From: a virus
Reading direction: 5' to 3' (one strand)
Virus record (IMG/VR): IMGVR_UViG_3300042549_007727
DNA: 64,000 nucleotides
Position numbers and translations under genes: made by a program. The stretch's first letter is position 1. Every line of letters starts with the position of its first letter. Under the pieces are notes generated by a model. That model saw only the letters and a program-made list of their open reading frames with translations, did not search any database and was not told where the DNA came from. Below are positions 9,408-62,260 of the stretch, in pieces.

Positions 9408-12086
9408 ATGGAAGAAGTAGATTCCGCTACTGGAAGGCTAAAAAATGGAGCCTTATGGTACGCCAATAATGGCTGGAAAATACTTCCTGTACATGGAATT
9501 GTAGATGGCAAATGTACTTGCGGACGCCCTCATTCTGAACCCAAAGATATTGGTAAACACCCAGCTATAAATGCGTGGGACACCAAAGCTACCTCAGATC
9601 AAAATGAAATTAGTTCTTGGTGGGAAACTAATCCTGAGTACAATATCGGAGTTTTTGCCAGAGAGTCTGGCTTCCTAGTAATTGACATCGACCCACGAAA
9701 CGGTGGAGACGAGTCATTCTTAAAACTTGAAGCACTGGCATCTGGTGCGCTACCAAAAACTGTAGAAGCTGTCACCGGTGTATACAACGTAAACGGAAAA
9801 TCAGTAAGAGGTAGGCACTTAATCTACAAGTGCAAGCCAGGTGAAAAGTTTATCGGCAACTTTAAAAAAGCTGGACTTGACGGTATAGATGTAAAGTACA
9901 ACGGATACATTCTTATAGCCCCATCTAGACATTTTTCTGGTGTCAACTACTACTGGAAAGAGGGGCACGCTCCTTGGCAAATTGGAGAACCTGCTGAAGC
10001 ACCAGAAGAACTACTTGCCGTTATTAGGGCTTCGAGTCCAAGTAGCAGCTACACGGGTGGATCTAGTAGATATAAAGATGGCAACTGGGGGGCTTTTAAA
10101 GATCTAGAGTATGACGGCTCTAAGGTCGACATTGAAAAAATTCTTGGTGAGGGTCTTGTCGAAGGTGAACGCGCTGTTGAGATTTACAAACTAGCCTGTG
10201 CGCTAGCAAACAAAATGGGCACTGACTCGATCTCAAGGAGCGCTATCGAGTCAATGATGATTCGATTCAATGCAGAAAAAGTAAAGCCACCTATGGAGTT
10301 AGAGGGACCTAACTCGCTGCTTATGCACGTTAATAGAGCAATGGATTTTGTTGCCGGAAACCCTAAAGTAAATCTTAAGTGGGAAGGGATTTCTGATTGG
10401 GCAGCTACTAAAGGAGCCGACTGGGCGAGCAAAGCTCAGGAAGCTGCCACGAATAAGAGAAAAGAAAAACTAGTTGAAGAATCAGCTAGAGCAATTGAGA
10501 CGTTTGTTGGATCTACTAGTTATGAGGAAGCTCCTCCTGTAGAGGAGTCCGTGTTTATTGGAGATCGTGTAGCTAGTCTGGTTAAAAAGGGTATGTCTGT
10601 GACAGACGCTATTGGTGGCGGAAACTCCGGATTACCTCAAGACCAAGACGCGGTTGATGCTGAAGATGGTGGTGTTCTCGGGGACCGAAGCTTCACTGAT
10701 GTTGGAAACAGTCGAAGACTGATTGATACTTTTGGTTCTGCTATTAGATATACTCCTGGTTTAGGTTGGTTTTTTTGGGATGGTAATTATTGGAAACCAG
10801 ACTTAGAAAACCTAGAGCTACAAGAGCTAGCTAAAAAAGTTGCACCAGTAATCGCCGGTGAGATTAGCAATGTGGATTTAAATAGCACAAAAGCAAACGA
10901 GATTATTAACTGGGCAAAGCAAGCAAAGTCAAGCACCCGTATGACTAGCATGATAAAAAATGCTGTATCTGATAAACGAATCGGGGTCCCTATTGAGCAT
11001 TGGGACGGCGATGTTAATTTGCTTGGTGTAATGAATGGTGTAGTTAACTTAAAAACAGGAGAACTTCTATACGGTAGGCCTGATTTGTATATCACTAGAA
11101 GAGCTCCAGTTGCATATACTCCAGGATTAAAAAACGTTAAGTTTGAGCAATTTTTAGATTTTGCAACTAATGGCGATAAAGAGTTCCAAGAGTGGTTACA
11201 GAGAGCTGTTGGCTATACCCTCACGGGAAATAACAATCAGGACGTTATGTTTTTGGTTTACGGCCCTCCTGGATCGGGTAAAACAACGTTTGTTGAAACT
11301 ATTTTTAATGCTTTAGGCTCTAAACAATATTCTTGGACTCTAGATTCTTCGGTACTTGCTGCTGGAGACGGTCAGGCAAATAGGACAGATGAGTATCACA
11401 TGGCAGAGCTTAGAGGCCGCCGTATGATATGGGTCGATGAACTTCCAGAATCAGAGCGTCTCAAAGAAAACCAAGTCAAGAAGATGACTGGTTCTGGAAC
11501 ACTTTCGGGTCGATCTCCTGGAGAGCGCCCATTCACATTTACGTCCCAAGGAAAGCTTTGGGTTACCACAAACCACAGGCCCATTATTACGGACGATGCA
11601 ATGTGGCGTCGTTTAAGGCCAATTCCACTTACAAACATTCCTGAAAATCCTGATAAAGACTTGCGCCCGTATCTATCTGATCCTGAAGGTGGCCTACCAG
11701 CAGTTCTTTCTTGGGCTGTAGATGGAGCAATCAAATACCTAAACTCTTCCGCGAAAGACGCCTTGGGTTGGTGCACCATAGTACGCGAAGCAGCTGATGT
11801 ATATAGGAAGAATGAAGACAGAATTGGCTTGTTTTTTGAGGAAGAAACTCAGCAGGCTAAAGACATATCTGTCACTATAGCTTCTTTATATGGACTATAT
11901 AGAAAATGGAGTGATACTCGCGGTGAGCGTGCAATGACTCAGATAGCATTCCAACGTAAACTAAGCGACAGGGCTATGAATATTGTTGGTCAAGGATCTA
12001 AAGCAGTTCTACATGGCTATGCCATACTACCTAGGGCTGTACCGAATTGGACCGATTCGGTTGCTGCTTCTCAAATAATGCTTTAA
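9408..12086 (+). CDS. Bifunctional primase-polymerase fused to D5-like SF3 helicase
   Basis: Prim-Pol motifs GKHP, NIGV, VIDIDPRNGG, GRHLIY; Walker A GPPGSGKTT; WVDELPE, TNHRP. Confidence 0.9.
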   Translation: MEEVDSATGRLKNGALWYANNGWKILPVHGIVDGKCTCGRPHSEPKDIGKHPAINAWDTKATSDQNEISSWWETNPEYNIGVFARESGFLVIDIDPRNGGDESFLKLEALASGALPKTVEAVTGVYNVNGKSVRGRHLIYKCKPGEKFIGNFKKAGLDGIDVKYNGYILIAPSRHFSGVNYYWKEGHAPWQIGEPAEAPEELLAVIRASSPSSSYTGGSSRYKDGNWGAFKDLEYDGSKVDIEKILGEGLVEGERAVEIYKLACALANKMGTDSISRSAIESMMIRFNAEKVKPPMELEGPNSLLMHVNRAMDFVAGNPKVNLKWEGISDWAATKGADWASKAQEAATNKRKEKLVEESARAIETFVGSTSYEEAPPVEESVFIGDRVASLVKKGMSVTDAIGGGNSGLPQDQDAVDAEDGGVLGDRSFTDVGNSRRLIDTFGSAIRYTPGLGWFFWDGNYWKPDLENLELQELAKKVAPVIAGEISNVDLNSTKANEIINWAKQAKSSTRMTSMIKNAVSDKRIGVPIEHWDGDVNLLGVMNGVVNLKTGELLYGRPDLYITRRAPVAYTPGLKNVKFEQFLDFATNGDKEFQEWLQRAVGYTLTGNNNQDVMFLVYGPPGSGKTTFVETIFNALGSKQYSWTLDSSVLAAGDGQANRTDEYHMAELRGRRMIWVDELPESERLKENQVKKMTGSGTLSGRSPGERPFTFTSQGKLWVTTNHRPIITDDAMWRRLRPIPLTNIPENPDKDLRPYLSDPEGGLPAVLSWAVDGAIKYLNSSAKDALGWCTIVREAADVYRKNEDRIGLFFEEETQQAKDISVTIASLYGLYRKWSDTRGERAMTQIAFQRKLSDRAMNIVGQGSKAVLHGYAILPRAVPNWTDSVAASQIML

Positions 12087-18885: not shown

Positions 18886-18886
<1 letters not shown>
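17705..18886 (-). CDS. Collagen-like fibre with C-terminal T4 gp34-like repeat domain
   Basis: GPT repeats; [13 protein letters not shown]...GW C-terminal domain. Confidence 0.75.
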
Positions 18887-22720
<3,834 letters not shown>

Positions 22721-22792: not shown

Positions 22793-23467
22793 CTAGCCTT
22801 GGGCATTACCCTGCTTCCACTCCTCCTGTTGAATTCTCTGCTCTTCTCGGACTTTTTCAATCTCTGCTTCCCACTCTGCTAGGCGCTCCTCCGAATACAC
22901 GGATTCGGCATAGTCCCAAAAAGCCCCTATAGTGTGCCGGGTCCCTGATTCTACCTTTTTAACCTGATGCACGTTTAGGATGCCTCCGGGGAACGTAATT
23001 AGCTGCCCGGCTTTAGGCTTAATTGTCAGATCGTGATCACGGAAGTCTAGCTCCCCACCCTCATAATCATCATTTATATATAGAAGACATACCAATTTGC
23101 TCTTTTCCCAGGCTGACCAGTTGCCTTCCATATCTGTGTTGTCAGAGTGGAATGGTGCATATGCACCTTTTTCCCACTTCTGGGCATGATTAGAGACTGA
23201 CTTTACTGGACGTTCATGGGCATCCTCTACATACTCTTGGAGCCTGTCAGCAAGTTTACCCAAATAGTCTCTGGGTAGCCCGTATTTTTCTAGGTTTGGG
23301 TCATCTGGAAGAATGCTCATGCCATATGACTCATAAAAAGCTGACATACTCCATGGGTGATCTGGGTCATTAAAGTAGTTTATAATTTTTTGTTGGTCTT
23401 CTAGCGGGATAAAATCATCATAATAAATGATGTCATCTTTAAAAAATTGTTTATTTTTATCTGTCAT
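22793..23467 (-). CDS. 2OG-Fe(II) oxygenase (prolyl-hydroxylase-like)
   Basis: HSD, YINDDYEGGEL, H...GTR. Confidence 0.9.
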   Translation of the reverse strand: MTDKNKQFFKDDIIYYDDFIPLEDQQKIINYFNDPDHPWSMSAFYESYGMSILPDDPNLEKYGLPRDYLGKLADRLQEYVEDAHERPVKSVSNHAQKWEKGAYAPFHSDNTDMEGNWSAWEKSKLVCLLYINDDYEGGELDFRDHDLTIKPKAGQLITFPGGILNVHQVKKVESGTRHTIGAFWDYAESVYSEERLAEWEAEIEKVREEQRIQQEEWKQGNAQG

Positions 23468-23924
23468 TTTTACTATCTCCTGTGTAGCCAGTATTTAGGA
23501 AAAATCTTTCTGGGTCAAAACGCTGGTTGTCTTTAGAGAACAGCTTAACAGTCTCTAGTATTAGATAATTGTAACTGTCCGAAGCCATACCGTCTTTTAT
23601 GCTATTAAGTATCTCCGACATTTTATTGTAGTCATCTCTAACAAATACGCACTCTCCTCCCCGGGGTCGTTTTAATATCTTTTCATGAACTCTACCGGTA
23701 GGTTCATATAACGTTACAGTCAAAAATTCCTTAGCAAAACCCCAGTCTGTGTAGGCTGCGTAGCCAGTTGCGGCGTCTATTGCATTGTCATAAAAGTATA
23801 TAGATCTGGCTGGAGACTCCCCGTCGCGGGCAACTGTGAGCATGTAAGAGTCTCCAGCGCCTCTAGATACTTTAGCTTTATATTCTTCAACAAGTACGCC
23901 ATTGATAGCGTTTAGTTCGTTCAC
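23457..23924 (-). CDS. Hypothetical protein within the oxygenase array
   Basis: 155-aa ORF overlapping both neighbours. Confidence 0.65.
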   Translation of the reverse strand: MNELNAINGVLVEEYKAKVSRGAGDSYMLTVARDGESPARSIYFYDNAIDAATGYAAYTDWGFAKEFLTVTLYEPTGRVHEKILKRPRGGECVFVRDDYNKMSEILNSIKDGMASDSYNYLILETVKLFSKDNQRFDPERFFLNTGYTGDSKNDR

Positions 23925-24799
23925 TCTAAATAGCTATCTTTTAGTTCGCCTGACTCTAAGAGTCTGTAATATTCTCCAATAGTCATTCTTTGGTGGAGTA
24001 CCGGATCTTGAATGGTTAAATCTCTTCTTTTTCTTCTAACTTTTTCAAGCTCTTCGAAAGCTGGACCGTATTTTTCTTTTAATCTTTTATAGTCTTCAGA
24101 TGCTTCCTCTTCAAAAATCCAATACAGTCGGACCATATATTTTGAGGCTTTTTTAATATTCATTACCCCGTGGTAGTACGGCGGGGTAGATGGGAACATT
24201 AAGATATCTCCTGCTTCTGGTTTGTAAAATATTTCTTTGACTACCTTTTTATTGTCTTCCGGGTCAGTTATTCTAAAGTTTATATCCCCGCCCTCATAGT
24301 CGTCATTTAGATAGACAACTGCAGTTATCCCAAACTTTTCTCCTGGGTACTCTGCTATTTCTTGTTGGTAGTCTGTATGATGTCTCATGGTTCTACCATC
24401 GTTGTCCGCCTCGTTAAACTCTGGTACATCTGGAAAATACCTAGCAACCCCCCAAGTTGGAGCCTTCCATGACGGCAAATAAGTTTTAGTTTCGTTTATG
24501 TATATGCTTGACGCATCATAAAAAAGATCAGCAATCTTTCTTTTATAGGGGTCTGGTTCTTCGGAAAACTCCTTAGTCCAGGCTTCTTTAGTCGGGAATT
24601 CTGTGGTTGTGCCCCAAGAGAGACCTGAATCAGCTATCATTTCCCCAAAAATAAACCAAGACACCCAGCGGGCTTTTTGCTCTGGGTCTGTAAGATAATA
24701 ATCTATATATTCTTGAGGATTTTTTACCCATTTATTAAAAATCCATATTTTATCGTCTAGTTTTTTTATATTTAAACTTTCTAAGGTTGTATCATCCAC
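23921..24799 (-). CDS. 2OG-Fe(II) oxygenase
   Basis: HTD, YLNDDYEGGDI, YHGV...SKY. Confidence 0.9.
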   Translation of the reverse strand: MDDTTLESLNIKKLDDKIWIFNKWVKNPQEYIDYYLTDPEQKARWVSWFIFGEMIADSGLSWGTTTEFPTKEAWTKEFSEEPDPYKRKIADLFYDASSIYINETKTYLPSWKAPTWGVARYFPDVPEFNEADNDGRTMRHHTDYQQEIAEYPGEKFGITAVVYLNDDYEGGDINFRITDPEDNKKVVKEIFYKPEAGDILMFPSTPPYYHGVMNIKKASKYMVRLYWIFEEEASEDYKRLKEKYGPAFEELEKVRRKRRDLTIQDPVLHQRMTIGEYYRLLESGELKDSYLE

Positions 24800-24801
24800 T
24801 T

Positions 24802-25446
24802 TTAGTCTGCACTTCCTGTTTTACTGTTATTCTTCCAGTGGTGGGTTATTAACATTTTTCGGCCCTTTACTATTTTGCAAGACTGGTGAAGATATGGCAA
24901 GGTAGATGGGAACATGACAACGCTTCCGGCTTTAGGCTTAATTTTTATGTCAATTTGAGGATCAACAAAGTAAAGCTCTCCACCCTCATAGTCGTCATTT
25001 AAGTACACTACTATTGTGTATGTAATATCTGAGTTGTGCTCATTCCAGTCAACGTGGGGGCCCATATACTGACCTTCAAAATATTTATTGATTCCGTACT
25101 TTGTCTCTGGAAAACGTAAAGCATGGTCCGCAAATGACAGCATTTCTTCGCTAATGTTGTACAGTTCAGCGTACTTGCTTGCGCAAGATGACATACTAGA
25201 TATAAGAGTATTGAGGACGCGATCTGCAGTAGTTTTAGTTGCTAGATCGGACTCGATGTCTAGTAGTTTTTTCTGCATATACTTAATCTCGCCGTATGGA
25301 TCTGTCTCTGTTCCATACCCATACCAAGTATTCCACTCTGTAATTGCAACACTATTAGTAGACTCTATATCAGCTATTAATTTATCGATGTTATCTATTA
25401 CCCCGGGGAAATAGACAATTTTGTCATAAGGTATTTCGTAGTTCAC
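24802..25446 (-). CDS. 2OG-Fe(II) oxygenase
   Basis: HVD, YLNDDYEGGEL, LHQS...GRK. Confidence 0.9.
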   Translation of the reverse strand: MNYEIPYDKIVYFPGVIDNIDKLIADIESTNSVAITEWNTWYGYGTETDPYGEIKYMQKKLLDIESDLATKTTADRVLNTLISSMSSCASKYAELYNISEEMLSFADHALRFPETKYGINKYFEGQYMGPHVDWNEHNSDITYTIVVYLNDDYEGGELYFVDPQIDIKIKPKAGSVVMFPSTLPYLHQSCKIVKGRKMLITHHWKNNSKTGSAD

Positions 25447-25448
25447 GG

Positions 25449-26225
25449 CTACTCCGACGTGAGCTGCTCTGCATCATCAGCAAGTTCCGCTGATCCAGCA
25501 TTATATTTCTTACGATCTTCTTCATTGTTTATGTCAAAATCATCAATAAAAACAAAACCAGGAAAAATGTACTTATCTCCCTTTTTCATTTCGTGTACTC
25601 GGTGCATAAATGGGTGGGTAGACGGGAATATTAAAGCTGATCCTGGTTTTGGTTTTAGCCAAAAATCAATTCTGTCTTTATTTCGTGGATCGTGCACATC
25701 TTCTAGTGGCTTCATCTCTGAGTACTTAGGGTCTCTTAGGTCATAGTCTCTAATTGCAAAAGAGATTTCCCCGCCCTCGTAGTCCTCGTTTAGATATAAA
25801 ACTATGGAGTACTTTAGAGTTCTATCTCCAGCCTGAGCATCAAAGTGAGCACCCATAGAGCAGCCTTCTATGTATTTCATAATTCCCACAAACGGAGACA
25901 TGTTTGGGGATCCTTCTAGATTTCTATCTCTGTAATATGCTTCAGCAACATCAGTCACTGCCTTTTTTATAGCAAATATTGCAGTTTTTACATCTTCTTT
26001 TCTGGGAGATGTTAAATTTTCAATTGCATCTGGATTAAAGTCTTTTTTGCCCCCAAATTCATGGTAGGACTTACTGTTGGATAGCCAAGGCCCCCATGGT
26101 GGTATAGCTGGGTAAACTGACTCGTCTGAGTCAAGCTCCTCTATTAGCGCAATTAGCTCTTCTGGATTAGCAATTACGTCTTGGTAGTAAAAAACTTCTT
26201 CGTGTAGTTTTTCAGCTAAAAACAT
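25449..26225 (-). CDS. 2OG-Fe(II) oxygenase
   Basis: HFD, YLNEDYEGGEI, MHRV...GDKY. Confidence 0.9.
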   Translation of the reverse strand: MFLAEKLHEEVFYYQDVIANPEELIALIEELDSDESVYPAIPPWGPWLSNSKSYHEFGGKKDFNPDAIENLTSPRKEDVKTAIFAIKKAVTDVAEAYYRDRNLEGSPNMSPFVGIMKYIEGCSMGAHFDAQAGDRTLKYSIVLYLNEDYEGGEISFAIRDYDLRDPKYSEMKPLEDVHDPRNKDRIDFWLKPKPGSALIFPSTHPFMHRVHEMKKGDKYIFPGFVFIDDFDINNEEDRKKYNAGSAELADDAEQLTSE

Positions 26226-26279
26226 GTCTTTCCTATCTACGGTTTAGTTGTCCTATGTACATTCTATATTAATTTGTAG

Positions 26280-26930
26280 CTATTCTTTGTTGGCGGCATC
26301 TACTATTTTTTGGGGTATATTGCCTAAAACATTAGTTACGTACTTTACCCCGCTGTTTATGGTCCTGGACTCATGTAAAAATGCAGCAGGAAATATAACT
26401 ATGCTTCCTGGGGTCGGTTTTATAGCGACCCCCTTGTCCGGGAAGCTTAGCTCTCCGCCTTCGTAGTCGTCATTAAAGTATATTGATGCTGTGTACTCCA
26501 CTGGGTCTAGTGATTCTGAGTCAGGGTGAGGCCCTAGGTGCTCGCTATCAAAATATTTTTTTATTGCTATATGATCGAGTCCGGAGTCTCGATATTTAGA
26601 TGCCCAGGTAGTAGCAGTTTTTTCTGGCAGCCCTATTGCTCGGTAGTAGTCAGCAAAAGAGTTGTCTAACGCTGTATATATGTTATAAATCACGTTAGAA
26701 ACTTGATCTTTAACTTTAGCGTCTGATTCAAGGTTATTTTTGCTTGGTGTTAGTTCTTTCATTAGACCGTATTGATGAACATTATTGGAACCACCTGAGA
26801 GCCAAGGCAGCCACTCACCGGCAGCAATACTATTTGTATTCTCTAGTAGTTCCACGACATCAGCAGGAGTTTTTAGTGCATATGGAAAATGTACTATTTT
26901 TTCTGCTATAAGTTCGTAGTTTGATGTCAT
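26280..26930 (-). CDS. 2OG-Fe(II) oxygenase
   Basis: HPD, YFNDDYEGGEL, LHES...GVKY. Confidence 0.9.
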   Translation of the reverse strand: MTSNYELIAEKIVHFPYALKTPADVVELLENTNSIAAGEWLPWLSGGSNNVHQYGLMKELTPSKNNLESDAKVKDQVSNVIYNIYTALDNSFADYYRAIGLPEKTATTWASKYRDSGLDHIAIKKYFDSEHLGPHPDSESLDPVEYTASIYFNDDYEGGELSFPDKGVAIKPTPGSIVIFPAAFLHESRTINSGVKYVTNVLGNIPQKIVDAANKE

Positions 26931-27608
26931 TTATGGCTGCTTATCTCCGGTGTGTTTTAGAATGGTCCAAAAAAATGGACTAACATATCTAATACCAGAT
27001 ATAACTTCGGTGACTCCATGAATATAGTTCATGTCTCCAGGGAAAAAGTATGCTGCACCTCGTTTAGGTTTAAACTGGATTCCTTGATTAGGGAAATACA
27101 GTTCTCCACCTTCATAGTCATCATTTATGTAGAATAGTCCAGCAATGTCATAGTACGGAAAGTCGTTTGGTTTTCCTCTATTTTCGCCTTCATGTAGTTC
27201 TTTGTCAGCGTGAGGATTTTGATACTGTCCCGGTAACCATCTAACTAAAGCTGGTGGAGTTGGTAGGGCATCTACTTTTAAGAATTTGTCCACTTCGAGC
27301 TTAAGTCTTTGCTGCATGCCCTCAATAACTTCTAGTACTCGAGGATCTGACTTATTTAAGCTATTTGTAGTTGCTACTCGATCCTCCCAGTAAGACGCGT
27401 CATATATGCATACGCCATCTTCGTTATAGTGTGACTCGGTGTAGTCCCAGATGGTATTATTTCTAGCAAAATTGTCTAAAAACTCCAGCTCTTCGTCGGT
27501 CATAAAATTTTCTAGAGTCACAATATTGTTAGCAGAATCTCCAAAAAACCCGGAGGGGGTTATAGAAACTCGCTCATTGAACTGTAAGTTATTGTTAGCT
27601 GCATCCAT
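26931..27608 (-). CDS. 2OG-Fe(II) oxygenase
   Basis: HAD, YINDDYEGGEL, IHGV...GIRY. Confidence 0.9.
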   Translation of the reverse strand: MDAANNNLQFNERVSITPSGFFGDSANNIVTLENFMTDEELEFLDNFARNNTIWDYTESHYNEDGVCIYDASYWEDRVATTNSLNKSDPRVLEVIEGMQQRLKLEVDKFLKVDALPTPPALVRWLPGQYQNPHADKELHEGENRGKPNDFPYYDIAGLFYINDDYEGGELYFPNQGIQFKPKRGAAYFFPGDMNYIHGVTEVISGIRYVSPFFWTILKHTGDKQP

Positions 27609-27624
27609 AGTTATATCCTACTCC

Positions 27625-28356
27625 CTACTCGTATGTACGACGAGTCCAGACTTCCTTTTGGTAGACTCCTCCGTTTGGTACTCGGTATTTGTTGCTATTT
27701 TCTTGATTCTTTTTGACCATTTCTTCATAGCTAATTTTTGTTTCTACTTCAGAAATCCAGTTTTCTCTTTTAAATGGAAGGATCTGCGCATACGGAGTTC
27801 CTGCTGGTATGACTCCCGAAAAACCTTTAGCTATAAAAAATGGCATTGTGCCTGGAAGATGTACCTTGTCGTTATCAATTACTCCGCTAGTTGTCAGAAA
27901 AGGTAGCTCAAATCTGTTAAATGGCTGGGCATAAAGTGCGCTGTATCCTTCTGGTAGTTCTACTGCCCAGTCAGACCACCAAGCAAAGTGTTCTTCATGA
28001 TATCCGGACGGTGCTACAAACTGAGACATCGGTGGTCGTTCCCCTACAAAGTCTTGCATTTGAGGATTTAGAACTTTTATTTTAGGTTTGCCGGCTACCT
28101 CTAAAATTTCTATGTCGCAGGGGGTTCTATACACATAACCGGTGCCCATGATGTCGAAAACTGCAGGGCATGCTTTCCAAGTAGGAATCTTGCCGCCGTC
28201 TCGGGGATCCACCCAGTGTTCATTTGTGTGGGGATTTACTGCAAAACGATCAGCTTTTCTGTACCACTCTGGAATTGTTTTTATTGTAGGTTTAGGGGCT
28301 GAGGGGCTGTCTTTAGTTAGCCAAGGTCTATTAACTACAAATTTAATTTTGTTCAA
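27625..28356 (-). CDS. DUF6065-like protein (dUTPase-like beta fold suspected)
   Basis: IPEWY, TWKACPAVFD.M.TGY, LPEGYS.L..QP.N, IPAGTP.AQI.PF.R. Confidence 0.6.
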   Translation of the reverse strand: MNKIKFVVNRPWLTKDSPSAPKPTIKTIPEWYRKADRFAVNPHTNEHWVDPRDGGKIPTWKACPAVFDIMGTGYVYRTPCDIEILEVAGKPKIKVLNPQMQDFVGERPPMSQFVAPSGYHEEHFAWWSDWAVELPEGYSALYAQPFNRFELPFLTTSGVIDNDKVHLPGTMPFFIAKGFSGVIPAGTPYAQILPFKRENWISEVETKISYEEMVKKNQENSNKYRVPNGGVYQKEVWTRRTYE

Positions 28357-29104
28357 GGTCCCCCTCCTGAGTAGCCTCTACTTCATAAGTGTTTTTAGTT
28401 ACTGGGCACGTGACAGTTTTTAACTTAATTTTTTTTGTTTCGTGGTGACCTACTACGTCTCCCCGATAGTCTAATCCGTCTCTATACATTTTTGACCAGT
28501 CGCCAACTCTATTTCTGAGCTCTAAAGCAGCGCCATACCTTTTTACTTCGTCCCAGTGGTCCTGGCCAACATATTCATCAGATATTTGTAACTCATAGTC
28601 GTTTTCTAATGATGTTAAAGATATTGGCATTACCGAAGCTACAGGAGTGCCAGCTGGGATGGTAATTTCTATGTTTGGTTCTGTGACTCTCCAGGCTATT
28701 GGAAGCCCGTGAATATAAAAAGACGTGCTTATTAAGGTTGTATAGCAGTGGGCACCGCGAATAAACAGATTAGGGGTAGGCATTGTTAGCATAGTGGTTT
28801 GATCGTCGGTTTTAAATATCAAACCAGATACAAAACTTATAGTTGCATTTCCCCTGTTAGTGTCTACGTATTTATGTCCCTTTAGTACAGTTATGTGGTC
28901 TGGTGTGGTGTCTGTAACTCCGTCCCAAATAAAAACTATGTCTTCGGGGAAAGATATCCCCCAGCCGAGTCTATTAGTTACACTTAGGGGAAAGCACATA
29001 TACGCGTGCTTTTCCGGTGTTTCATCCATCCAATCGCGTCTAGCTTCAAGCTGCTCTATGTTGGCGCAGTCTTGCTCGTACTTTTTTACATATATGCTTT
29101 TCAC
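28343..29104 (-). CDS. DUF6065-family protein
   Basis: RDWMD.T..KHAYMCFPL..TNRLGW, IPAGTPVA..MP. Confidence 0.7.
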   Translation of the reverse strand: MKSIYVKKYEQDCANIEQLEARRDWMDETPEKHAYMCFPLSVTNRLGWGISFPEDIVFIWDGVTDTTPDHITVLKGHKYVDTNRGNATISFVSGLIFKTDDQTTMLTMPTPNLFIRGAHCYTTLISTSFYIHGLPIAWRVTEPNIEITIPAGTPVASVMPISLTSLENDYELQISDEYVGQDHWDEVKRYGAALELRNRVGDWSKMYRDGLDYRGDVVGHHETKKIKLKTVTCPVTKNTYEVEATQEGDLEQN

Positions 29105-29862
29105 TAATTTCCTGTTTCTTCATAGAACTGAGGAGTGTGAAACTTTTCTGAATAGTCAAGCATGGTTACCATAGAGTACTTAGTCCCAGACTTCACTGGC
29201 ATTGCTCTGTGTGGGTACATAAAGTTTGACGGAAATACGTAGAGATCGCCCTTCTTAGGCTTAATTGTGATGTTCTGAAGTCTAAAATACAACTCTCCAC
29301 CTTCGTAGTCGTCATTGGGAAACCCGACTAGTGACACTACGCAGTTATATGAGTACCCGTGATCGTGGTGCTCTTGGAAGTGTTGTCCGGGGCCGTACTT
29401 AACGTAGTTAGTTGCTTCCCAGTAGCGAAGCTCGCCTATGTTAAATCTTCTTGTATAGTCTTTGACCGCTTGAAGCTCTTTATACGTTACGTCATCAGCA
29501 AGCTCTTGCAGCGCAAGTCCAGCTGGCGATGTGTCATGAGCAATGTCAGATTTTTTGTATTTAAAGTCTACGCAGTCGCGATACTCTGGCATCTTCATCG
29601 CATACCCAACCATTGCTTCTTGATATTCGTAGTGGTTGTCTGGATTAGTTATTACCGACTCTAGTCTGTTGATTATATCTAAATCGTCTGTTAGAACGTC
29701 TCTGTACACAACAATACCTGGCGCAACTTCTTCTGAGCTACTCCATGTTTGTTTTTCTACGGTGTACCAAGCAGAGAGCCTCTCTGCAACTAATTTCTGT
29801 TTTTCAGCTCCCTCGGTTTCTTGGGGCTTATCTGAAAAGTTTTGTGTGTTTTCCATAACCAT
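29104..29862 (-). CDS. 2OG-Fe(II) oxygenase
   Basis: HHD, NDDYEGGEL, PHRA...GTKY. Confidence 0.9.
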   Translation of the reverse strand: MVMENTQNFSDKPQETEGAEKQKLVAERLSAWYTVEKQTWSSSEEVAPGIVVYRDVLTDDLDIINRLESVITNPDNHYEYQEAMVGYAMKMPEYRDCVDFKYKKSDIAHDTSPAGLALQELADDVTYKELQAVKDYTRRFNIGELRYWEATNYVKYGPGQHFQEHHDHGYSYNCVVSLVGFPNDDYEGGELYFRLQNITIKPKKGDLYVFPSNFMYPHRAMPVKSGTKYSMVTMLDYSEKFHTPQFYEETGN

Positions 29863-29866
29863 ATCC

Positions 29867-30610
29867 TTAATACGTTAGTTTATATTCTTCAATTACTGGA
29901 GCAACTCTGTTGTTTACATTGTCTCTGTCGTTATAATCCGTCATAACTACTACTGAGTATTTGACACCAGATTTTATGTCCTGTGACGAGTGCTCATATA
30001 TGAAAGTTGATGGAAATACAAGTACATCTCCTGCTTTAGGTTTTATTGTTAAATTGTCCATTCGAGGAAACCAAATCTCTCCGCCTTCGTAGTCGTCATT
30101 TAGGTATACAACTACAGAAATTGTGCAAACATATGTTGGACCGTGATCTGCGTGTATTTTAAAGTGAGTTCCTGGCCCGTCGTACTTTACAAAATTAAAT
30201 GCTTCGTACCATCTCATTCCTACGCCCCAGGAATCAGAATAATCATCTACGCATTGGCGCACTGCTTGGAATACTTTTTCATGAAGATCGTAAAGCTCCG
30301 AATTTTCTGAGTCGCGGGGGCCTAGCGATGTAGAGTTAACTTTAAAATCTTGTGCATTTCTAGCGCTTAGAAGCACATCGGCTGACGTTGTCACTCTTGC
30401 TCCACCCCAAGTATATTTACCTGTGCCGCTCAAGTTAGACTCTAAAGTTTTTATGTATTCTCTACCCTGCTCTTCTGTGATGGCCCCGCGGTACAGGTTC
30501 ACTCCTAGTGCTGGATTAGACACAGTAATATTTGGGTTTCTGGGAGCAGGGCGGTCTGGCATCCGATTATTTGAAGTTTCAGATCTATCTTTTGTGAACC
30601 AGTCGTTCAT
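29867..30610 (-). CDS. 2OG-Fe(II) oxygenase
   Basis: HAD, YLNDDYEGGEI, EHSS...GVKY. Confidence 0.9.
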   Translation of the reverse strand: MNDWFTKDRSETSNNRMPDRPAPRNPNITVSNPALGVNLYRGAITEEQGREYIKTLESNLSGTGKYTWGGARVTTSADVLLSARNAQDFKVNSTSLGPRDSENSELYDLHEKVFQAVRQCVDDYSDSWGVGMRWYEAFNFVKYDGPGTHFKIHADHGPTYVCTISVVVYLNDDYEGGEIWFPRMDNLTIKPKAGDVLVFPSTFIYEHSSQDIKSGVKYSVVVMTDYNDRDNVNNRVAPVIEEYKLTY

Positions 30611-30768: not shown

Positions 30769-32104
30769 ATGCTATTACTATAAAGGATCTTGTGATGAAC
30801 CAAGGCTGAGGAGAAGTCTTTACTTCGTAAACTGTAGACTCAGCTTCGTCTTTTTCTATAGAGACAACTACTGTTTCTGACACTACTCCGTCTGCTGCTA
30901 CTCCTAGTAGAACGTCTCCTATTTCGACGTCTTCAGCGTTTTTGTAGCTTATTCCTTCAGATTCTTTTACAAGAATTGGCTGAGTTACAGAGTAGTCCTT
31001 ACCTAGATCATTAAATCCGATTAGCACGGCGGATCTAGCTTCTACTGAGACTATCTCTGCTTCGATGAGAGCTACCTCTTCACTTAAGAAGCTGGACTGC
31101 TTAGTCTCTAATAGCGCTGACAGATCTATGTGTCGACTGTCAACCGTCAACACTTTGTCTCCAACTTTTACATTCTCTGCTTTTTCCCAGCCGTTTGGGG
31201 TCAGGATGTCTGTTGTTGGTGCCAAACAGAATCTTACCTTGAAGCTTGGGAAGAACGGGAACATCGGTGGGAAGAACGGTGGGAAGAACGGGAACATCGG
31301 TGGGAAGAAAGGTGGGAAGAAAGGTGGGAAGAACGGGAACATCGGTGGGAAGAAAGGTGGGAAGAACGGTGGGAAGAACGGGAACATCGGTGGGAAGAAC
31401 GGTGGGAAGAAAGGAGGGAAGAAAGGAGGGAAGAATGGTGGGAAGAATGGTGGGAAGAATGGAGGGAAGAATGGAGGGAAGAATGGCGCAGTAGTAATCG
31501 ACGCAGAGTAGCTAGACCACTCCGAGGCACCATTTGCATTTTTAGCTCTAACTCTATACTGCTGAGCGGTGTTTGCTTCCTGAGTCACTGTTGCTGAAGT
31601 GCCAGTTACGTTTGAGGAGTTTGACTTACTATCGGTACTTTCCCAGTCATATCCAGTTATGACAGAGCCGCCAGTACTAGGGGCTGACCATGAAACAATG
31701 TCTTCGCCATTACTTGTTGTTACCGTTGGAGTGTTTGGAGCCTGGGGCACTGTTGTTATAGTTACGCTTGAAGACGCGGAAGACTCAAGAGATGTTCCAG
31801 CTGAGTTTGTGGCTGTTAATACGAAGGTGTATCCGGTATTAGAGTCCAACCCGCCGACCACGATAGGGGAAGCAGATCCAGTAAGATTGGTTGCTGTTGT
31901 GTCAACAGTAGTGCCATTTTTGTAAGCAACTATGGTATATCCGGTAGCTTCTGGAGAGCCTTCTGGTAGAGCAAAAGCTACTGATGCAGCACCATTATCA
32001 AAAGCTCTAGCAGTCCCTACGTTGGTTGCAACAACATTAATTGGGGCTTTTGGCTCCAAAGAGTCGTTCTGCTGTTGGGAACGCTTACCAGGTGATTTGC
32101 TCAT
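30767..32104 (-). CDS. FN3-FN3-(PFFP)n repeat-Hint domain protein
   Basis: Two FN3 domains (GLDSNTGYTFVLTATNSAG; WSAPSTGGSVITGY...YRVRAKNANG), 80-aa Pro/Phe repeat, Hint domain starting CLAPTTDILTPNG. Confidence 0.85.
   Translation of the reverse strand: MSKSPGKRSQQQNDSLEPKAPINVVATNVGTARAFDNGAASVAFALPEGSPEATGYTIVAYKNGTTVDTTATNLTGSASPIVVGGLDSNTGYTFVLTATNSAGTSLESSASSSVTITTVPQAPNTPTVTTSNGEDIVSWSAPSTGGSVITGYDWESTDSKSNSSNVTGTSATVTQEANTAQQYRVRAKNANGASEWSSYSASITTAPFFPPFFPPFFPPFFPPFFPPFFPPFFPPFFPPMFPFFPPFFPPFFPPMFPFFPPFFPPFFPPMFPFFPPFFPPMFPFFPSFKVRFCLAPTTDILTPNGWEKAENVKVGDKVLTVDSRHIDLSALLETKQSSFLSEEVALIEAEIVSVEARSAVLIGFNDLGKDYSVTQPILVKESEGISYKNAEDVEIGDVLLGVAADGVVSETVVVSIEKDEAESTVYEVKTSPQPWFITRSFIVIA
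30770..31228 (-). other. Hint (Hedgehog/intein) domain, residues 293-445
   Basis: Block A C-L-x-x-x-T-x-I, AENVKVGDKV, second half AEDVEIGDVL, block F VYEV...WFI; no terminal His-Asn. Confidence 0.75.
31247..31486 (-). repeat. Coding tandem repeat: 17 x PFFP (12 bp) with 4 interspersed PMF (9 bp)
   Basis: Pattern (PFFP)8-PMF-(PFFP)3-PMF-(PFFP)3-PMF-(PFFP)2-PMF-PFFP; variation among PFFP units is confined to Pro wobble positions. Confidence 0.95.
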
Positions 32105-41221: not shown

Positions 41222-43624
41222 CTAAACCGCAAAGTCTCCTCCGATGCGAGCAACTCTAAAACGAAGTAAGGTGTTGAAAACTGTAAAAAGTCCGCCAAGC
41301 AATATCTTCCCGTCTGACTGAGTAACTATTGAAAAAATAGTGTCACTAGCTCCGGTGCCGGTATTTGTGCTAAATGCTGTATCTCGTGTCCCATCCGAGT
41401 TGAGTCTTACAATGCGGTTTACCGTTGTACCGTTAAAAGTTGTAAAATTCCCGCCAAGCAGTATCTTTCCATCTGATTGAACAGCTACCGAGCTAACTGT
41501 GGTGTCTGCCCCCGTGCCAGTATTTGCGCTAAATGCTGTATCTACTGTTGCATCTGTATTAAGCCTTACAATGCGGCGGGCACTTACACCATTAAAACTT
41601 GTAAAGTCTCCACCTAACAATATCTTCCCATCTGATTGAACAGCTACTGAGTTGACTGTGTTATTAGCTCCAAAACTAAACCCAGGCTCAATAACAAACG
41701 TTGCGTCTCGTGTTCCATCTGCATTTAGCCTTACAATTCGAGTTGTTGTTGTCCCTTTAAAGCCTGAATAAGATCCGCCAACTAATATTTTTCCATCTGA
41801 TTGGATGGCTATTGAGTTAACTGAAGAATTGAACCCTGTTCCAATATTTGTTATAAAAGCAGTGTCTACTGTTCCGTCTGCATTAAGTCTTGCAATACGG
41901 TTTACCGTTGTACCGTTAAAGGTTGTAAAGCTCCCGCCAAAAAGTATTTTTCCGTCTGTTTGAACAGCTATTGAGTTGACTCTGTTATCTGTCCAACCCC
42001 CGGTATTTGCCCTAAAAGCTGTATCCATTGTCCCGTTTGCATTAAGTCTTACAGTCCGGAATGACGATGTACCATTAAAATCTGTAAAGTCTCCGCCAAT
42101 CAGTATCTTGTCATCTGACTGAATAGCAATTGAGACGGCGTTGGAATTAAGTGCTGTTCCAATATTTGTCATAAAGTCGGTATCTAATGTTAGATCCGAG
42201 TTAAGTCTGACAATACGACGGGCACTCACGCTATTAAAAAAATAAAAATCTCCAACTAATAAAATTTTGTTATTTGATTGAATACCTATATCTCTCACTA
42301 GGCCACTAACGGAAGGTATCTCCCCTAATTCTCCATCTGAGCTGAGTTTTACAAAGCCCCTTACTTCTATCTCATCAAATGTTGAAAAACCTCCACCCAG
42401 TAAAATAGTTCCGTCTGGTTGAATAGCGACCCTGCTTGGTGACGTAAGTGGTCCAGTGCCGGTATTTGTAGTAAATGCTGTATCTAAAGTTCCGTTTGCA
42501 TTAAGTCTTGCAATGGAGTTTACTGATATACCATTAATACTATTAACAGTCCCGCCGAGCAATATCTTTCCATCTGATTGAATAGCCATTAAAGAAATAG
42601 TGTTATTTGCCCCAACCCCAATATTTGTCATAAAGTCGGTGTCCCGTGTTCCATCCGAGTTGAGTCTTACAATGCGGTTTACCGTTGTACCGTTAAAAGT
42701 TGTAAAATTCCCGCCAAGCAATATCTTCCCGTCTGACTGAGTAACTATTGAAAAAATAGTGTCACTAGCTCCGGTGCCGGTATTTGTGCTAAATGCTGTA
42801 TCTCGTGTCCCATCCGAGTTGAGTCTTACAATGCGGTTTACCGTTGTACCGTTAAAAGTTGTAAAATTCCCGCCAAGCAGTATCTTTCCATCTGACTGAG
42901 TAACTATTGAGTAGACGATGTTATCCATGCCAGTGCCAGTATTTGCGCTAAATGCTGTATCTCGTGTCCCATCCGAGTTGAGTCTTACAATGCGGTTTAC
43001 CGTTGTACCGTTAAAAGTTGTAAAATTCCCGCCAAGCAATATCTTCCCGTCTGACTGAGTAACTATTGAAAAAATAGTGTCACTAGCTCCGGTGCCGGTA
43101 TTTGTGCTAAATGCTGTATCTCGTGTCCCATCCGAGTTGAGTCTTACAATGCGGTTTACCGTTGTACCGTTAAAAGTTGTAAAATTCCCGCCAAGCAGTA
43201 TCTTTCCATCTGATTGAATGTCCCTTGAAAAAATAACATCATTTGCCCCCGTGCCGGTATTTGTGCTAAATGCTGTATCTCGTGTCCCATCCGAGTTGAG
43301 TCTTACAATGCGGTTTACCGTTGTACCGTTAAAAGTTGTAAAAGTCCCCCCTAAAACTATCTTTCCGTCTGATTGAATCGCTATTGAGTTAACTGATCCC
43401 ACTTGACCCGTTGACGACCCAAGGTTAGTATTGAAATTTGCTGGAAAAAAATTTTCTTCGTTACCCAGTGGAGCATCTAAAACACCGCCCTGCAAAAACC
43501 AATTTTTCCATTTTTCATCTATCTTGGTCCATGCTGACTTAGCTATTCTCCAGCTTCCAGAGACTTTGACATAAGGAGCTGACATGTTTCTCCATGTCCC
43601 AGAAACTTTAGTTTGAGCCCCCAT
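41222..43624 (-). CDS. Delta-60 repeat beta-propeller protein (14 repeats), probable receptor-binding head
   Basis: QSDGKILLGG.FT.FNG...NRIVRLNSDGT.D..F repeats. Confidence 0.85.
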   Translation of the reverse strand: MGAQTKVSGTWRNMSAPYVKVSGSWRIAKSAWTKIDEKWKNWFLQGGVLDAPLGNEENFFPANFNTNLGSSTGQVGSVNSIAIQSDGKIVLGGTFTTFNGTTVNRIVRLNSDGTRDTAFSTNTGTGANDVIFSRDIQSDGKILLGGNFTTFNGTTVNRIVRLNSDGTRDTAFSTNTGTGASDTIFSIVTQSDGKILLGGNFTTFNGTTVNRIVRLNSDGTRDTAFSANTGTGMDNIVYSIVTQSDGKILLGGNFTTFNGTTVNRIVRLNSDGTRDTAFSTNTGTGASDTIFSIVTQSDGKILLGGNFTTFNGTTVNRIVRLNSDGTRDTDFMTNIGVGANNTISLMAIQSDGKILLGGTVNSINGISVNSIARLNANGTLDTAFTTNTGTGPLTSPSRVAIQPDGTILLGGGFSTFDEIEVRGFVKLSSDGELGEIPSVSGLVRDIGIQSNNKILLVGDFYFFNSVSARRIVRLNSDLTLDTDFMTNIGTALNSNAVSIAIQSDDKILIGGDFTDFNGTSSFRTVRLNANGTMDTAFRANTGGWTDNRVNSIAVQTDGKILFGGSFTTFNGTTVNRIARLNADGTVDTAFITNIGTGFNSSVNSIAIQSDGKILVGGSYSGFKGTTTTRIVRLNADGTRDATFVIEPGFSFGANNTVNSVAVQSDGKILLGGDFTSFNGVSARRIVRLNTDATVDTAFSANTGTGADTTVSSVAVQSDGKILLGGNFTTFNGTTVNRIVRLNSDGTRDTAFSTNTGTGASDTIFSIVTQSDGKILLGGLFTVFNTLLRFRVARIGGDFAV
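41290..43390 (-). repeat. Coding repeats of 159 bp (53 aa), several near-identical
   Basis: CCATCCGAGTTGAGTCTTACAATGCGG recurs at 42651, 42810, 42969 and onward with a 159-bp period, and again near 41391. Confidence 0.9.
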
Positions 43625-44349
43625 TAGCTATAAACAATCCAAAGATCGCCATTGTTGCCATCTCCAGCAGTTGGGCCCGTTGTTGAAGCCTGTATGAAGG
43701 TACCGTTTTCTCCGGCCGATCCAGTAGCACCAGTAGCGCCAGTTGGACCTGTTGGACCAGTCGGACCTCCTGAAGGGCCGGTCGGTCCGGTATCGCCTGT
43801 TGCACCAGTAGCACCTGTAGAACCTGTTGGTCCAGTTACTGTTGATGCGGCACCCGTTGCACCTGTAGCACCCGTAGGTCCAGTTGCTCCTGTAGGTCCA
43901 GTATCTCCTGCTGCACCAGTCGCACCAGTCGGTCCTGTAGGTCCAGTTGCACCATCAGCTCCCGCAAGTCCACCCTCAACATAGATATTTGCAATTGCTT
44001 CATCTACATATGTTTCTGTAGCCAATCCTTCAATATTTGCAGCAGGCCCAGTTGGGCCTGTCGGACCTTGCGGGCCAACATTGTTCTGGCCTGGCTCTAT
44101 CCAAAAAGAATCGTAGTAAACAAAAGTTTTACCGCTAACAGAGTTAAACCATATATCTCCACTGCTTGGGGATGATGGGGGAGTTTCAGAGACCGAGTAG
44201 GTATTGCCTTTAGTATTTACCCAGGCGGAGCCATCGTGAACATAAACGGCATCTTCGTCTGCCTTAAAAAAGAGATCGCCAGCAGAACCTACCGACGGGA
44301 GAGTATTTCCCGACGGTAGGCCTACAGGGGTTAAAAACTTTTTAGACAT
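43624..44349 (-). CDS. Collagen-like fibre protein
   Basis: GPT/GAT tracts; GDIWFNS module; ends GDLWIVYS. Confidence 0.8.
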
Positions 44350-52797: not shown

Positions 52798-53427
52798 TTA
52801 AATTTCGTGAGCCAGTCTCTGGTGTTCAGGCGGTATGACTGCGTAGTTAGGCTTATACTCTATGCTTGTATCTACAACATCAAAGAAGTGGCTAAGAATA
52901 TTTATTCTAGATCCGCTAGAGACTTTGTTTACTGCATGTCTAGTGTAGAATCCTGGGAAAAACACTAAGGTCCCGGCAGTTGGTTTTAGCGATATTTTTT
53001 GATGTTCAAAAACTAATTCTCCGCCCTCATAGTCATCGTTTAAAAACAAACCCATAACGTATGTCATGCTGTTTAACTCTTCTATTGGCTGATCTATTGG
53101 CCTATCATCCGTGTGTCCATCTAGATAGGCCCCTTGGTGCATATAGTTAACATGAGATCTGTTTAGCTCGAAAGAGGTTCCTCGCATTTTATACTTATCA
53201 AGAAAAAATTGTTTGCCAAAAGCTACTGCTTCATAGAGCACATGCTCTGGATCAAATTTGTTAAAAGTATCTTTATTGGAAAAACTCTCTGGTCCGCCTA
53301 AGCTTAGGTTGCCATAAAACTCTCTAGGGTCTTCATCCTCGTGAATTAAAAAATACTTTAAAAGGTCTGAACACTGCTTTTTAGTTATGTAGTTTTCAAT
53401 AACATAGTATGGCTCTATGGTGTTCAA
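52798..53427 (-). CDS. 2OG-Fe(II) oxygenase
   Basis: HTD, FLNDDYEGGEL, RHAV...GSR. Confidence 0.9.
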   Translation of the reverse strand: MNTIEPYYVIENYITKKQCSDLLKYFLIHEDEDPREFYGNLSLGGPESFSNKDTFNKFDPEHVLYEAVAFGKQFFLDKYKMRGTSFELNRSHVNYMHQGAYLDGHTDDRPIDQPIEELNSMTYVMGLFLNDDYEGGELVFEHQKISLKPTAGTLVFFPGFYTRHAVNKVSSGSRINILSHFFDVVDTSIEYKPNYAVIPPEHQRLAHEI

Positions 53428-55065: not shown

Positions 55066-55596
55066 GTGGAAACAATAAAACATTACAGCCAAATTTGGGA
55101 AGTTCAAGGGTTTCTTTCAAAAGAAGAACTTCTATATTTTAATGAGCTTCCGAGTAAGGTTTTAGAGCTAGACTGGTTTTCTGTGGACGGGCCGGAGCAC
55201 TGGAGGGGCAGAGATCTTGTTCTAGAAAAAACTTTAGAACTTGACAATTTAGAAAAAAAAGTTGCTTCTTTGTTTAAAAATTATGAGCGAATTCATGACA
55301 TACAAAGCCTTCTTCGTTATAGGTCCGGGGATATGCTGGGAGAGCACAGGGACAATAGCGAAGAGTCGGACTATAACAACATATACGGTCTAATAATTTA
55401 CTTAAATGACGACTACGAGGGCGGGGAAATTTACTATCCAGATGTAAATATTAAGATAAAACCTAAGGCAGGATCTATTGTCATTCATGACGCGGGCATC
55501 CTTCACGGAGTAAAGCCTGTCGTTGGTACTAAGATAAGATATGTCTTAACTAGTTTTGTTAAAGGTGACAAAACAACATGTTTTTTAGGAGAATGA
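55066..55596 (+). CDS. 2OG-Fe(II) oxygenase
   Basis: HRD, YLNDDYEGGEI, LHGV...IRY. Confidence 0.88.
   Translation: METIKHYSQIWEVQGFLSKEELLYFNELPSKVLELDWFSVDGPEHWRGRDLVLEKTLELDNLEKKVASLFKNYERIHDIQSLLRYRSGDMLGEHRDNSEESDYNNIYGLIIYLNDDYEGGEIYYPDVNIKIKPKAGSIVIHDAGILHGVKPVVGTKIRYVLTSFVKGDKTTCFLGE

Positions 55597-60094: not shown

Positions 60095-62260
<2,166 letters not shown>

Follow-up and report, generated by a model that had tools for sequence, protein, structure and literature searches.

What is the role of an 80-residue protein segment that is made only of proline, phenylalanine and methionine and lies between folded domains? The question is raised by a minus-strand gene in the 64,000-nucleotide stretch of the IMG/VR virus record IMGVR_UViG_3300042549_007727 that we analyzed (hereafter the window). 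Its product carries two fibronectin type III (FN3) domains, the Phe/Pro tract, a short basic junction and a C-terminal Hint domain (Table 1). The original prediction, made from the DNA alone, took the tract to be under protein-level selection and proposed that it was either a multi-core peptide precursor or a rigid aromatic rod. We propose, with a probability of roughly 0.55, that the tract is an extended stalk or tether of a probable virion-surface phage protein that is matured by self-cleavage of the Hint domain. A structural stalk is more likely than a peptide-drug precursor, because the tract is a conserved, length-variable spacer between the FN3 and Hint domains and because a prolyl-hydroxylase-like gene nearly always comes next.

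The Phe/Pro tract and its family

Re-translation of the minus-strand open reading frame (ORF) gave a tract of P, F and M only, arranged as (PFFP)8, PMF(PFFP)3, PMF(PFFP)3, PMF(PFFP)2 and PMF-PFFP, so that the predicted 17 PFFP and four PMF units were recovered exactly from the DNA. The higher-order PMF-(PFFP)3 unit that had been described occurs in two full copies, and Tandem Repeats Finder detected nested periods of 12, 33 and 45 nt. Codon counts agreed with the prediction that Phe is always TTC (38/38) and that the DNA varies only at Pro third positions (CCA 18, CCG 11 and CCT 9; the four Met codons are ATG). The antisense ORFs over the tract translate as GKNG/GKKG and WEER/WEEW; as had also been claimed, each variation at a Pro third position alters a residue in them. 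An 80-codon tract with three residue types cannot have been produced by chance. The tract itself matched no Pfam family. Pro stands at each third or fourth residue and Gly is absent from all 80 residues, which lack the Gly at every third residue that marks a collagen-like triple helix; therefore the tract is neither an alpha-helix nor a collagen helix. In the window there was neither a second tract-bearing gene nor a tRNA-Phe or tRNA-Pro gene.

A homologue search over 5.8 billion proteins (E<=0.001) found 391 relatives of the 445-residue protein, and nearly all of the 120 homologues listed had P[FYW]FP/FFP units behind their two FN3 domains. Moreover, a degenerate DNA pattern for PFFPPFFP, which was used to gather IMG/VR loci, matched at least 120 stretches; the tracts of 116 distinct IMG/VR ORFs were 48.7% Phe and 45.7% Pro and used both Phe codons and all four Pro codons. 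Homologues that are 40-60% identical in the flanking domains retained the Phe/Pro tract while its synonymous codons varied, which bears out the prediction of protein-level selection: judged by these comparisons, such a mixture of synonymous codons is the expectation of selection on the peptide and not on a DNA repeat. The conservation in homologues likewise identifies this frame as the coding one.

The plus strand over the tract is a polypurine simple repeat, and in short-read assemblies such repeats easily collapse or expand; the tract could thus be a non-coding simple-sequence repeat or an assembly artefact in a chance open frame. This we regard as negligible. The tract runs in frame between two confidently folded domains, and the feature recurs in this frame in independent samples, on at least 120 IMG/VR contigs and in hundreds of database proteins. 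As far as the existence of the tract is concerned, comparison across samples refutes the artefact, while the exact copy number is as assembled only.

Tract length ranged from about 15 to about 140 residues across homologues. The prediction that copy number varies was upheld by loci L005/L007 and L006, whose FN3 parts are identical at 205/205 residues while one allele lacks a single 10-residue RFPFFPFFPP unit; this is direct evidence of gain or loss of whole units, a difference that assembly collapse could also give. Unit types vary freely across the family (FFP, FFPP, YFP, HFPP and FGFTP). A fixed super-period of a multiple of three residues, i.e., a strict polyproline-II register, was considered and dropped, as super-units of 10, 11, 14 and 15 residues all occur.

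The folded parts that enclose the tract were assigned with confidence. Pfam PF00041 (fn3) scored 36.7 bits against a cut-off of 25, in two stretches of the N-terminal 205 residues, and PDB entries for FN3 domains (titin and neogenin) were matched; the AlphaFold2 model showed beta-sandwich strands with a predicted local distance difference test (pLDDT) score of 95-98. There was also a weak match to the PHROG 'minor tail protein' family over residues 115-206. In the full-length AlphaFold2 model the FN3 pair and the Hint domain reached pLDDT values of 95 and above, while the tract scored 40-59 and had no secondary structure assigned by DSSP. As modeled, the tract is a non-globular spacer between folded domains.

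The motif is also used elsewhere as a linker. A search with the tract only found it behind PASTA-like, He_PIG, Flg_new and Cys-rich repeat domains; short linkers (10-30 residues, of the APFFPPYFAP type) join beta-sandwich or Cys-rich domains, sometimes four or five per protein, and minimal proteins of 70-170 residues contain little beyond the tract and end in ..PPSFK-stop. When 1.84 billion representatives were scanned in full by HMMER with a query of tract plus Hint, 109 clusters were returned, in which the Hint subfamily was essentially always the last domain. PFFP-type units lay upstream of Hint in 35 of the 72 clusters with sufficient upstream sequence; most of the remainder carried related FGFTP, YSFTP or PPSFF units. 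Some weak or internal Hint matches had no Phe/Pro low-complexity sequence upstream. The original prediction had named unrelated low-complexity linkers in homologues as evidence that would count against it, and here the outcome is mixed: close and mid-distance homologues keep PFFP/PYFP units and the most distant Hint relatives carry the related units, but a few have plain Pro-rich linkers. By these comparisons the conserved property is 'aromatic plus proline' and not the exact tetrapeptide, and tract and Hint appear to travel jointly behind unrelated N-terminal parts. The distant terminal-Hint members (P0183, P0207, P0218, P0243 and others) have FGFTP, YSFTP or VFGFSP repeats instead of PFFP; these recall cohesive FG repeats, an analogy that suggests a broader class of Hint-capped, Phe-rich low-complexity tails.

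Such variation bears on the proposal of a multi-core precursor from which linear or cyclic Pro-Pro-Phe-Phe peptides would be released. The arguments for it are the tetrapeptide, which antamanide and cyclolinopeptide A also contain, and the large number of tandem units. These cyclic peptides, however, are fungal and plant products of dedicated short precursors, and the tetrapeptide is all they have in common with the window protein; no biosynthetic feature is shared. The freely drifting unit types are incompatible with a fixed peptide product, the motif also serves as a short single linker inside large modular proteins, and the tract is modeled between folded domains. Moreover, no leader, recognition or spacer sequence separates the units, in departure from the core-and-flank layout of ribosomally synthesized and post-translationally modified peptides of the cyanobactin, orbitide or amatoxin type. 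Neither protease, oligopeptidase nor macrocyclase was found among the annotated neighbors (annotated over about 12-47 kb and over 48-63 kb, with part of the small ORFs scanned), which are fibre proteins, oxygenases, a DUF6065 protein, collagen-like proteins, ribonucleotide reductase, a carbamoyltransferase and a peroxidase. We therefore consider a precursor very improbable; of the two roles first proposed, the rod is the one that fits the non-globular position and the use of the motif as a linker elsewhere.

A tblastn search of 50,697 deposited phage genomes gave no relative for either the whole protein or the Hint half, and for the FN3 half generic FN3 matches alone (actinophage minor tail proteins, E>=4e-4). 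A search of the ESM Atlas with the tract returned no usable match. Bacterial and archaeal genomes were scanned as well; there, true family members lay only on contigs of metagenome-assembled genomes, from many phyla, and the other matches were out-of-frame or simple-sequence ORFs; the contigs with family members are likely binned phage DNA. Full-text literature searches found no paper on natural PFFP/FFPP repeat proteins. On the basis of these searches, the tract proteins form an undescribed family from uncultured aquatic phages.

The Hint domain and its junction

The C-terminal 171 residues were aligned with 50 homologues and then folded, giving a model with pLDDT 94 and a predicted template modelling (TM) score of 0.84. 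In Foldseek, every top match was an intein, a bacterial intein-like (BIL) domain or a Hint domain of the hedgehog kind, with E values from 2e-7 to 1e-5, a probability of 1.00 and a target-based TM of at most 0.79; the Hedgehog Hint and the Tetrahymena BUBL BIL2 domain were among the best. The family profile matched PDB 2lwy, a 'bacterial intein-like domain', over its full length (E 1.9e-8), while Pfam Hint matches were sub-threshold and covered residues 293-329 (Hint_2, E 0.0024). The domain thus has the Hint superfamily fold by model, structural match and profile.

A motif census was made of 101 distinct Hint domains that are preceded by Phe/Pro tracts. The nucleophile at Hint residue 1 was Cys in 95 and Ser in six (Cys293 in the window), and the block-B Ser/Thr was conserved in 101/101. 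The fourth position of block B was more variable (Gln 74, His 23, Glu 3 and Thr 1): the window reads SVTQ, in place of Thr-x-x-His. A C-terminal His-Asn (plus 0-12 residues) was present in 34 of the 101 relatives; the window protein ends in FIVIA-stop and has neither a His-Asn nor a C-extein, as a type A BIL or a canonical intein would. Type A BILs end in His-Asn, while type B BILs are without that block and their cleavage is uncoupled from splicing (PMC4031507). The window Hint domain, lacking His-Asn at its FIVIA-stop end, is therefore type-B-like as far as its motifs indicate.

Two observations bear on whether the junction is still cut. First, all 53 domains of the Gln/no-His-Asn type to which the window belongs have kept the nucleophile at residue 1, which argues that the first step, formation of a thioester at Phe292-Cys293, is still selected. 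The loss of the block-B His leaves the cleavage rate uncertain; inteins without this His that still cleave are known, such as Tko CDC21-1. Second, Hint-less orthologues in the same gene order stop at ..PPGFRVRAV, that is, at the junction position, and together with the minimal proteins that end in ..PPSFK-stop they indicate that the cleaved form would be a viable end product. Moreover, in 58/101 domains the 10 residues ahead of Hint residue 1 contain an F[KR] motif, which has one to three basic residues. The simplest reading is that the Hint is a removable cap, that cleavage at its N-terminal junction would be autocatalytic, and that the mature protein would end in the tract and a short basic tail.

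Alternatively, another molecule (a lysine of a virion protein, a sugar or a lipid) could attack the thioester through an amine or hydroxyl group, by which the FN3-stalk would become covalently attached via its C-terminus. There are precedents in the attachment of cholesterol to Hedgehog and in the conjugation of ubiquitin-like domains that BIL domains are proposed to mediate in Tetrahymena, the two systems whose Hint domains are among the best structural matches. In addition, the nucleophile is invariant even in domains without the block-B His and the C-terminal His-Asn, the tract-Hint cassette recurs at the C-terminus behind N-terminal parts that are unrelated and can reach about 1,100 residues, and cleavage by type B BILs does not depend on splicing, as noted above. 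On the other hand, the Hint-less orthologues imply that transfer is not essential, the Hint ends at the stop codon and leaves no downstream domain to recruit an acceptor, and no acceptor was identified. By analogy with these systems, covalent transfer is conceivable and, in our judgment, unlikely.

The adjacent oxygenase and the gene neighborhood

Downstream of the tract gene, on the same strand, lies an array of 2-oxoglutarate-Fe(II) (2OG-Fe(II)) oxygenase genes, the first of which we call OXY_a (Table 1). No consensus terminator was found in the 157-bp gap between the tract gene and OXY_a.

Table 1. Features of the tract gene and of the downstream array in the window.
Feature	Coordinates	Strand	Description	Basis
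Whole gene, 445 residues	30767..32104	-	N-terminal conserved peptide, two FN3 domains, tract, basic junction, C-terminal Hint, stop	ORF list, translation, 391 homologues (E<=0.001)
N-terminal peptide, residues 12-18			QND-x-LEP type, family-conserved, ahead of the FN3 pair
Two FN3 domains, about residues 18-205	31487..32053	-		Pfam fn3, PDB titin/neogenin FN3 matches, AlphaFold2
Phe/Pro tract, residues 207-286	31247..31486	-	80 residues, 17 PFFP and 4 PMF units	Codon-level re-derivation from DNA
Junction SFKVRF, residues 287-292	31229..31246	-	Basic tail; Phe292 is the -1 residue of Hint
Hint/bacterial intein-like domain, residues 293-445	30770..31228	-	153 residues	AlphaFold2, Foldseek, family profile
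OXY_a, first 2OG-Fe(II) oxygenase	29867..30610	-	PF13640, prolyl-4-hydroxylase-like; 157 bp downstream of the tract gene	Pfam
Remaining co-oriented array	22793..29862	-	Seven more PF13640 oxygenases, one DUF6065 gene, two unannotated genes	Pfam

The eight oxygenases of the array are paralogous, and all keep the HxD...H and NDDYEGGE motifs. Their nearest solved relatives, all weak, are peptidyl prolyl and lysyl hydroxylases: Bacillus anthracis prolyl 4-hydroxylase, which is the best PDB match of OXY_a (E 2e-4), P3H1, LH3 and the prolyl 4-hydroxylase of Paramecium bursaria chlorella virus 1 (PBCV-1). The tract prolines may therefore be hydroxylated by OXY_a, and perhaps by more of the array, as are those of collagen, extensins and the (PAPK)n proteins of PBCV-1. 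This would stiffen the rod or prime it for glycosylation or cross-linking, and it is compatible with a stalk, to which it adds a step.

The pairing of the two genes was examined in the reverse direction, in the 80 best IMG/VR loci picked by OXY_a orthologues (39-63% identical), which were scored if they had at least 1.5 kb of upstream DNA (n=59). An aromatic-proline ORF lay upstream on the same strand in 57 of the 59 (within 3 kb in 52), and the pairing persisted although the tract proteins differ in having one, two or four FN3 domains, with or without Hint. Starting from the tract, which made for the weaker of the two tests, 72 of 102 loci had at least one such oxygenase and few had a collagen-like ORF. 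The 50,697 deposited phage genomes held neither the tract family nor the OXY_a orthogroup, for which the best match was 24-30% identical. Moreover, assemblies of the tripeptide hydroxyproline (Hyp)-Phe-Phe are stiffer than those of Pro-Phe-Phe (PMC8113556), which would be in keeping with such a modification.

Several results caution against this reading: i) the synteny may just mark one uncultured phage lineage, and the test on OXY_a loci is confounded by shared ancestry; ii) 38 tract genes were directly adjacent to an oxygenase, and in a within-locus permutation test the tract-oxygenase adjacency (34 observed vs 28.7 expected) was not significant, other genes being adjacent about as often; iii) several long loci with tract genes had no oxygenase; iv) the PDB matches of the oxygenases are weak (E about 2e-4); v) collagen-like proteins beyond the array are alternative substrates; vi) we know of no prolyl hydroxylase that acts on an F-P-P-F context. 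Full-text searches found no literature that links cyanophage oxygenases to a Pro-rich substrate. By their matching distribution, the tract gene and OXY_a form a conserved gene pair, which fits hydroxylation and also shared descent in one uncultured lineage. We hold hydroxylation by OXY_a as a tentative proposal, less likely than not, and the link of the tract to the rest of the array is one of context only.

Many related loci (L015 1613-2173, L060 1695-2532 and similar) have one small ORF between the tract gene and the OXY_a orthologue, with no match to the Hint, FN3 or oxygenase profiles; the window has no small ORF at this place. No Hint remnant was found in the 560-840-bp gaps that separate short tract genes from OXY_a orthologues.

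In total, eleven PF13640 oxygenase genes lie in the window, eight arrayed (22793-30610) and three dispersed (52798-53427, 55066-55596 and 62319-62903). The order of genes in the array is kept in seven related loci; in 7/7 close relatives the DUF6065 gene (28343-29104, minus strand) and an unannotated 243-residue gene (27625-28356, minus strand) follow the first two oxygenases in fixed order. Upstream of the tract gene are tail-fibre-like and virion-structural genes, among which one shares about 45% identity with T4-like cyanophage structural proteins; past the array come collagen-like fibre genes. Proteins with collagen repeats and tail-fibre repeats flank the array (20931-22361, 18886-20931, 43624-44349 and 60095-62260) and are alternative hydroxylase substrates. 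Inside the fibre module, an 800-residue protein with 13 DUF5122 beta-propeller repeats (E 2e-178; 41222-43624, minus strand) may be a receptor-binding head.

A 731-residue, two-domain haem peroxidase of the KatG catalase-peroxidase type (56251-58446, plus strand; Pfam PF00141 in two stretches, E 6e-65) could protect the Fe(II) oxygenases against peroxide, or it could cross-link aromatic residues. A NodU/TobZ-type carbamoyltransferase (53516-54952, plus strand), for which both Pfam halves match, adjoins dispersed oxygenases and may belong to a protein- or sugar-tailoring set. The primase-helicase (9408-12086, plus strand) is 50-58% identical to those of Microbacterium phages of about 190 kb and of the lake-metagenome 'Actinomycetia phage DSL-LC01'. 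Because the primase-helicase is Microbacterium-phage-like while the fibre proteins resemble those of T4-like cyanophages, the phage is not clearly a cyanophage and may infect aquatic actinobacteria.

The tract as a proposed stalk: mechanism, precedents and meaning

The proposed stalk would work as follows. From a gene that sits in a tail-fibre module, a precursor would be made as FN3-FN3-(Phe-Phe-Pro)n-basic tail-Hint. Cys293 would convert the Phe292-Cys293 peptide bond to a thioester, the Hint would depart, and the mature protein would end with the Phe/Pro tract and the SFKVRF tail. The tract would most likely be a rod of the polyproline-II kind (up to about 25 nm long if each of the 80 residues adds about 0.31 nm), whose Phe side chains would form a sticky face that is self-associating or surface-binding. 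Being half Phe, such a rod is unlikely to be free in water and probably packs against its own copies or a hydrophobic target; the Hint cap could restrain this sticky tail until assembly and then leave. The length of the tract would drift by replication slippage of units of 4-15 residues. The stalk is possibly hydroxylated.

Several points weigh against this proposal: i) the low confidence of AlphaFold2 over the tract gives no evidence for any particular conformation; ii) with 48% Phe, a solvent-exposed rod is physically awkward, which points to the rod being buried within an oligomer or a target surface; iii) membership of the virion is argued from gene context rather than from proteomics or structure; iv) the block-B His that usually assists the N-S acyl shift is Gln in the window and in the 74 relatives counted above, and cleavage may be slow, conditional or lost; v) Hint-less forms exist, and the Hint, being dispensable, may have a minor role.

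The individual parts of the proposed stalk have precedents. Rigid Pro-rich spacers are known from TonB (Glu-Pro/Lys-Pro), the Pro-Thr linkers of cellulases, plant extensins and the PBCV-1 (PAPK)n proteins, which exist alongside a viral prolyl 4-hydroxylase. Like them, the tract consists of tandem short Pro units, varies in length and stands between domains, and extensins and PBCV-1 likewise have a prolyl hydroxylase partner; unlike these hydrophilic or charged spacers, the PFFP tract is 48% Phe and has no charged or hydroxylated residues. With type B BILs and the C-terminal Hint of Hog-Hedgehog proteins the window Hint shares the fold, the N-terminal Cys, the block-B Ser/Thr and the last-domain position that allows self-excision from an N-terminal partner, and some family members (not the window protein) end in His-Asn as do type A BILs. 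It differs in the block-B Gln for His, in the lack of a C-extein, a sterol-recognition extension or a downstream toxin, in being phage-borne, and in standing essentially always behind Phe/Pro low-complexity sequence.

Self-removal of a C-terminal domain after use is also known in phage fibre modules, from the Peptidase_S74 chaperones of tail spikes and fibres (K1F endosialidase and T5 pb1). In these, however, a Ser-Lys dyad cleaves within a trimer, whereas a Hint forms a thioester in a usually monomeric domain, and the Pfam and Foldseek results for the window protein contained no S74 match by sequence or fold. The FN3 pair recalls the Ig-like/FN3 decoration and fibre domains of tailed phages such as T4 Hoc, in which tandem modules of structural-region proteins are presumably weak adhesins; homology is limited to the FN3 fold, and Hoc-type proteins have neither a Phe/Pro tract nor a Hint. 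The closest chemistry is that of the synthetic tripeptides Pro-Phe-Phe as well as Hyp-Phe-Phe, which have the same three-residue chemistry and form dry Phe-zipper assemblies, stiffer with Hyp (PMC8113556). These are free peptides in crystals with phi/psi angles of the helical region, and they say nothing direct about a covalent polymer within a protein. We infer that the feature is a new, widespread variant of the Pro-rich stalk, in which the stalk is linked with autoprocessing of the BIL type and with a candidate prolyl hydroxylase.

In a more elaborate scheme, tract, Hint and OXY_a would be one maturation system, in which the prolines are hydroxylated and the thioester then releases the stalk or plants its C-terminus covalently on the virion or the host envelope. 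We consider this joint scheme doubtful. To our knowledge, the 2OG-Fe(II) oxygenase arrays of marine phage genomes have been annotated for years without a known substrate; that one oxygenase orthogroup is almost always preceded by a gene with a Pro-rich tract makes the question of the substrate experimentally tractable. If the joint scheme is true, the protein would be a self-installing, hydroxylated aromatic tether and the first natural substrate for these arrays. The tract is a natural poly(Phe-Phe-Pro), whose chemistry has so far come from synthetic self-assembling peptides with no described natural counterpart, and its regular pairing with a terminal Hint suggests that intein-type chemistry is put to a new use in virus assembly. 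If the tract is a stalk only, it is still a new and widespread linker module, which would help with the annotation of 'hypothetical' phage proteins in their hundreds and may be of interest in protein engineering.

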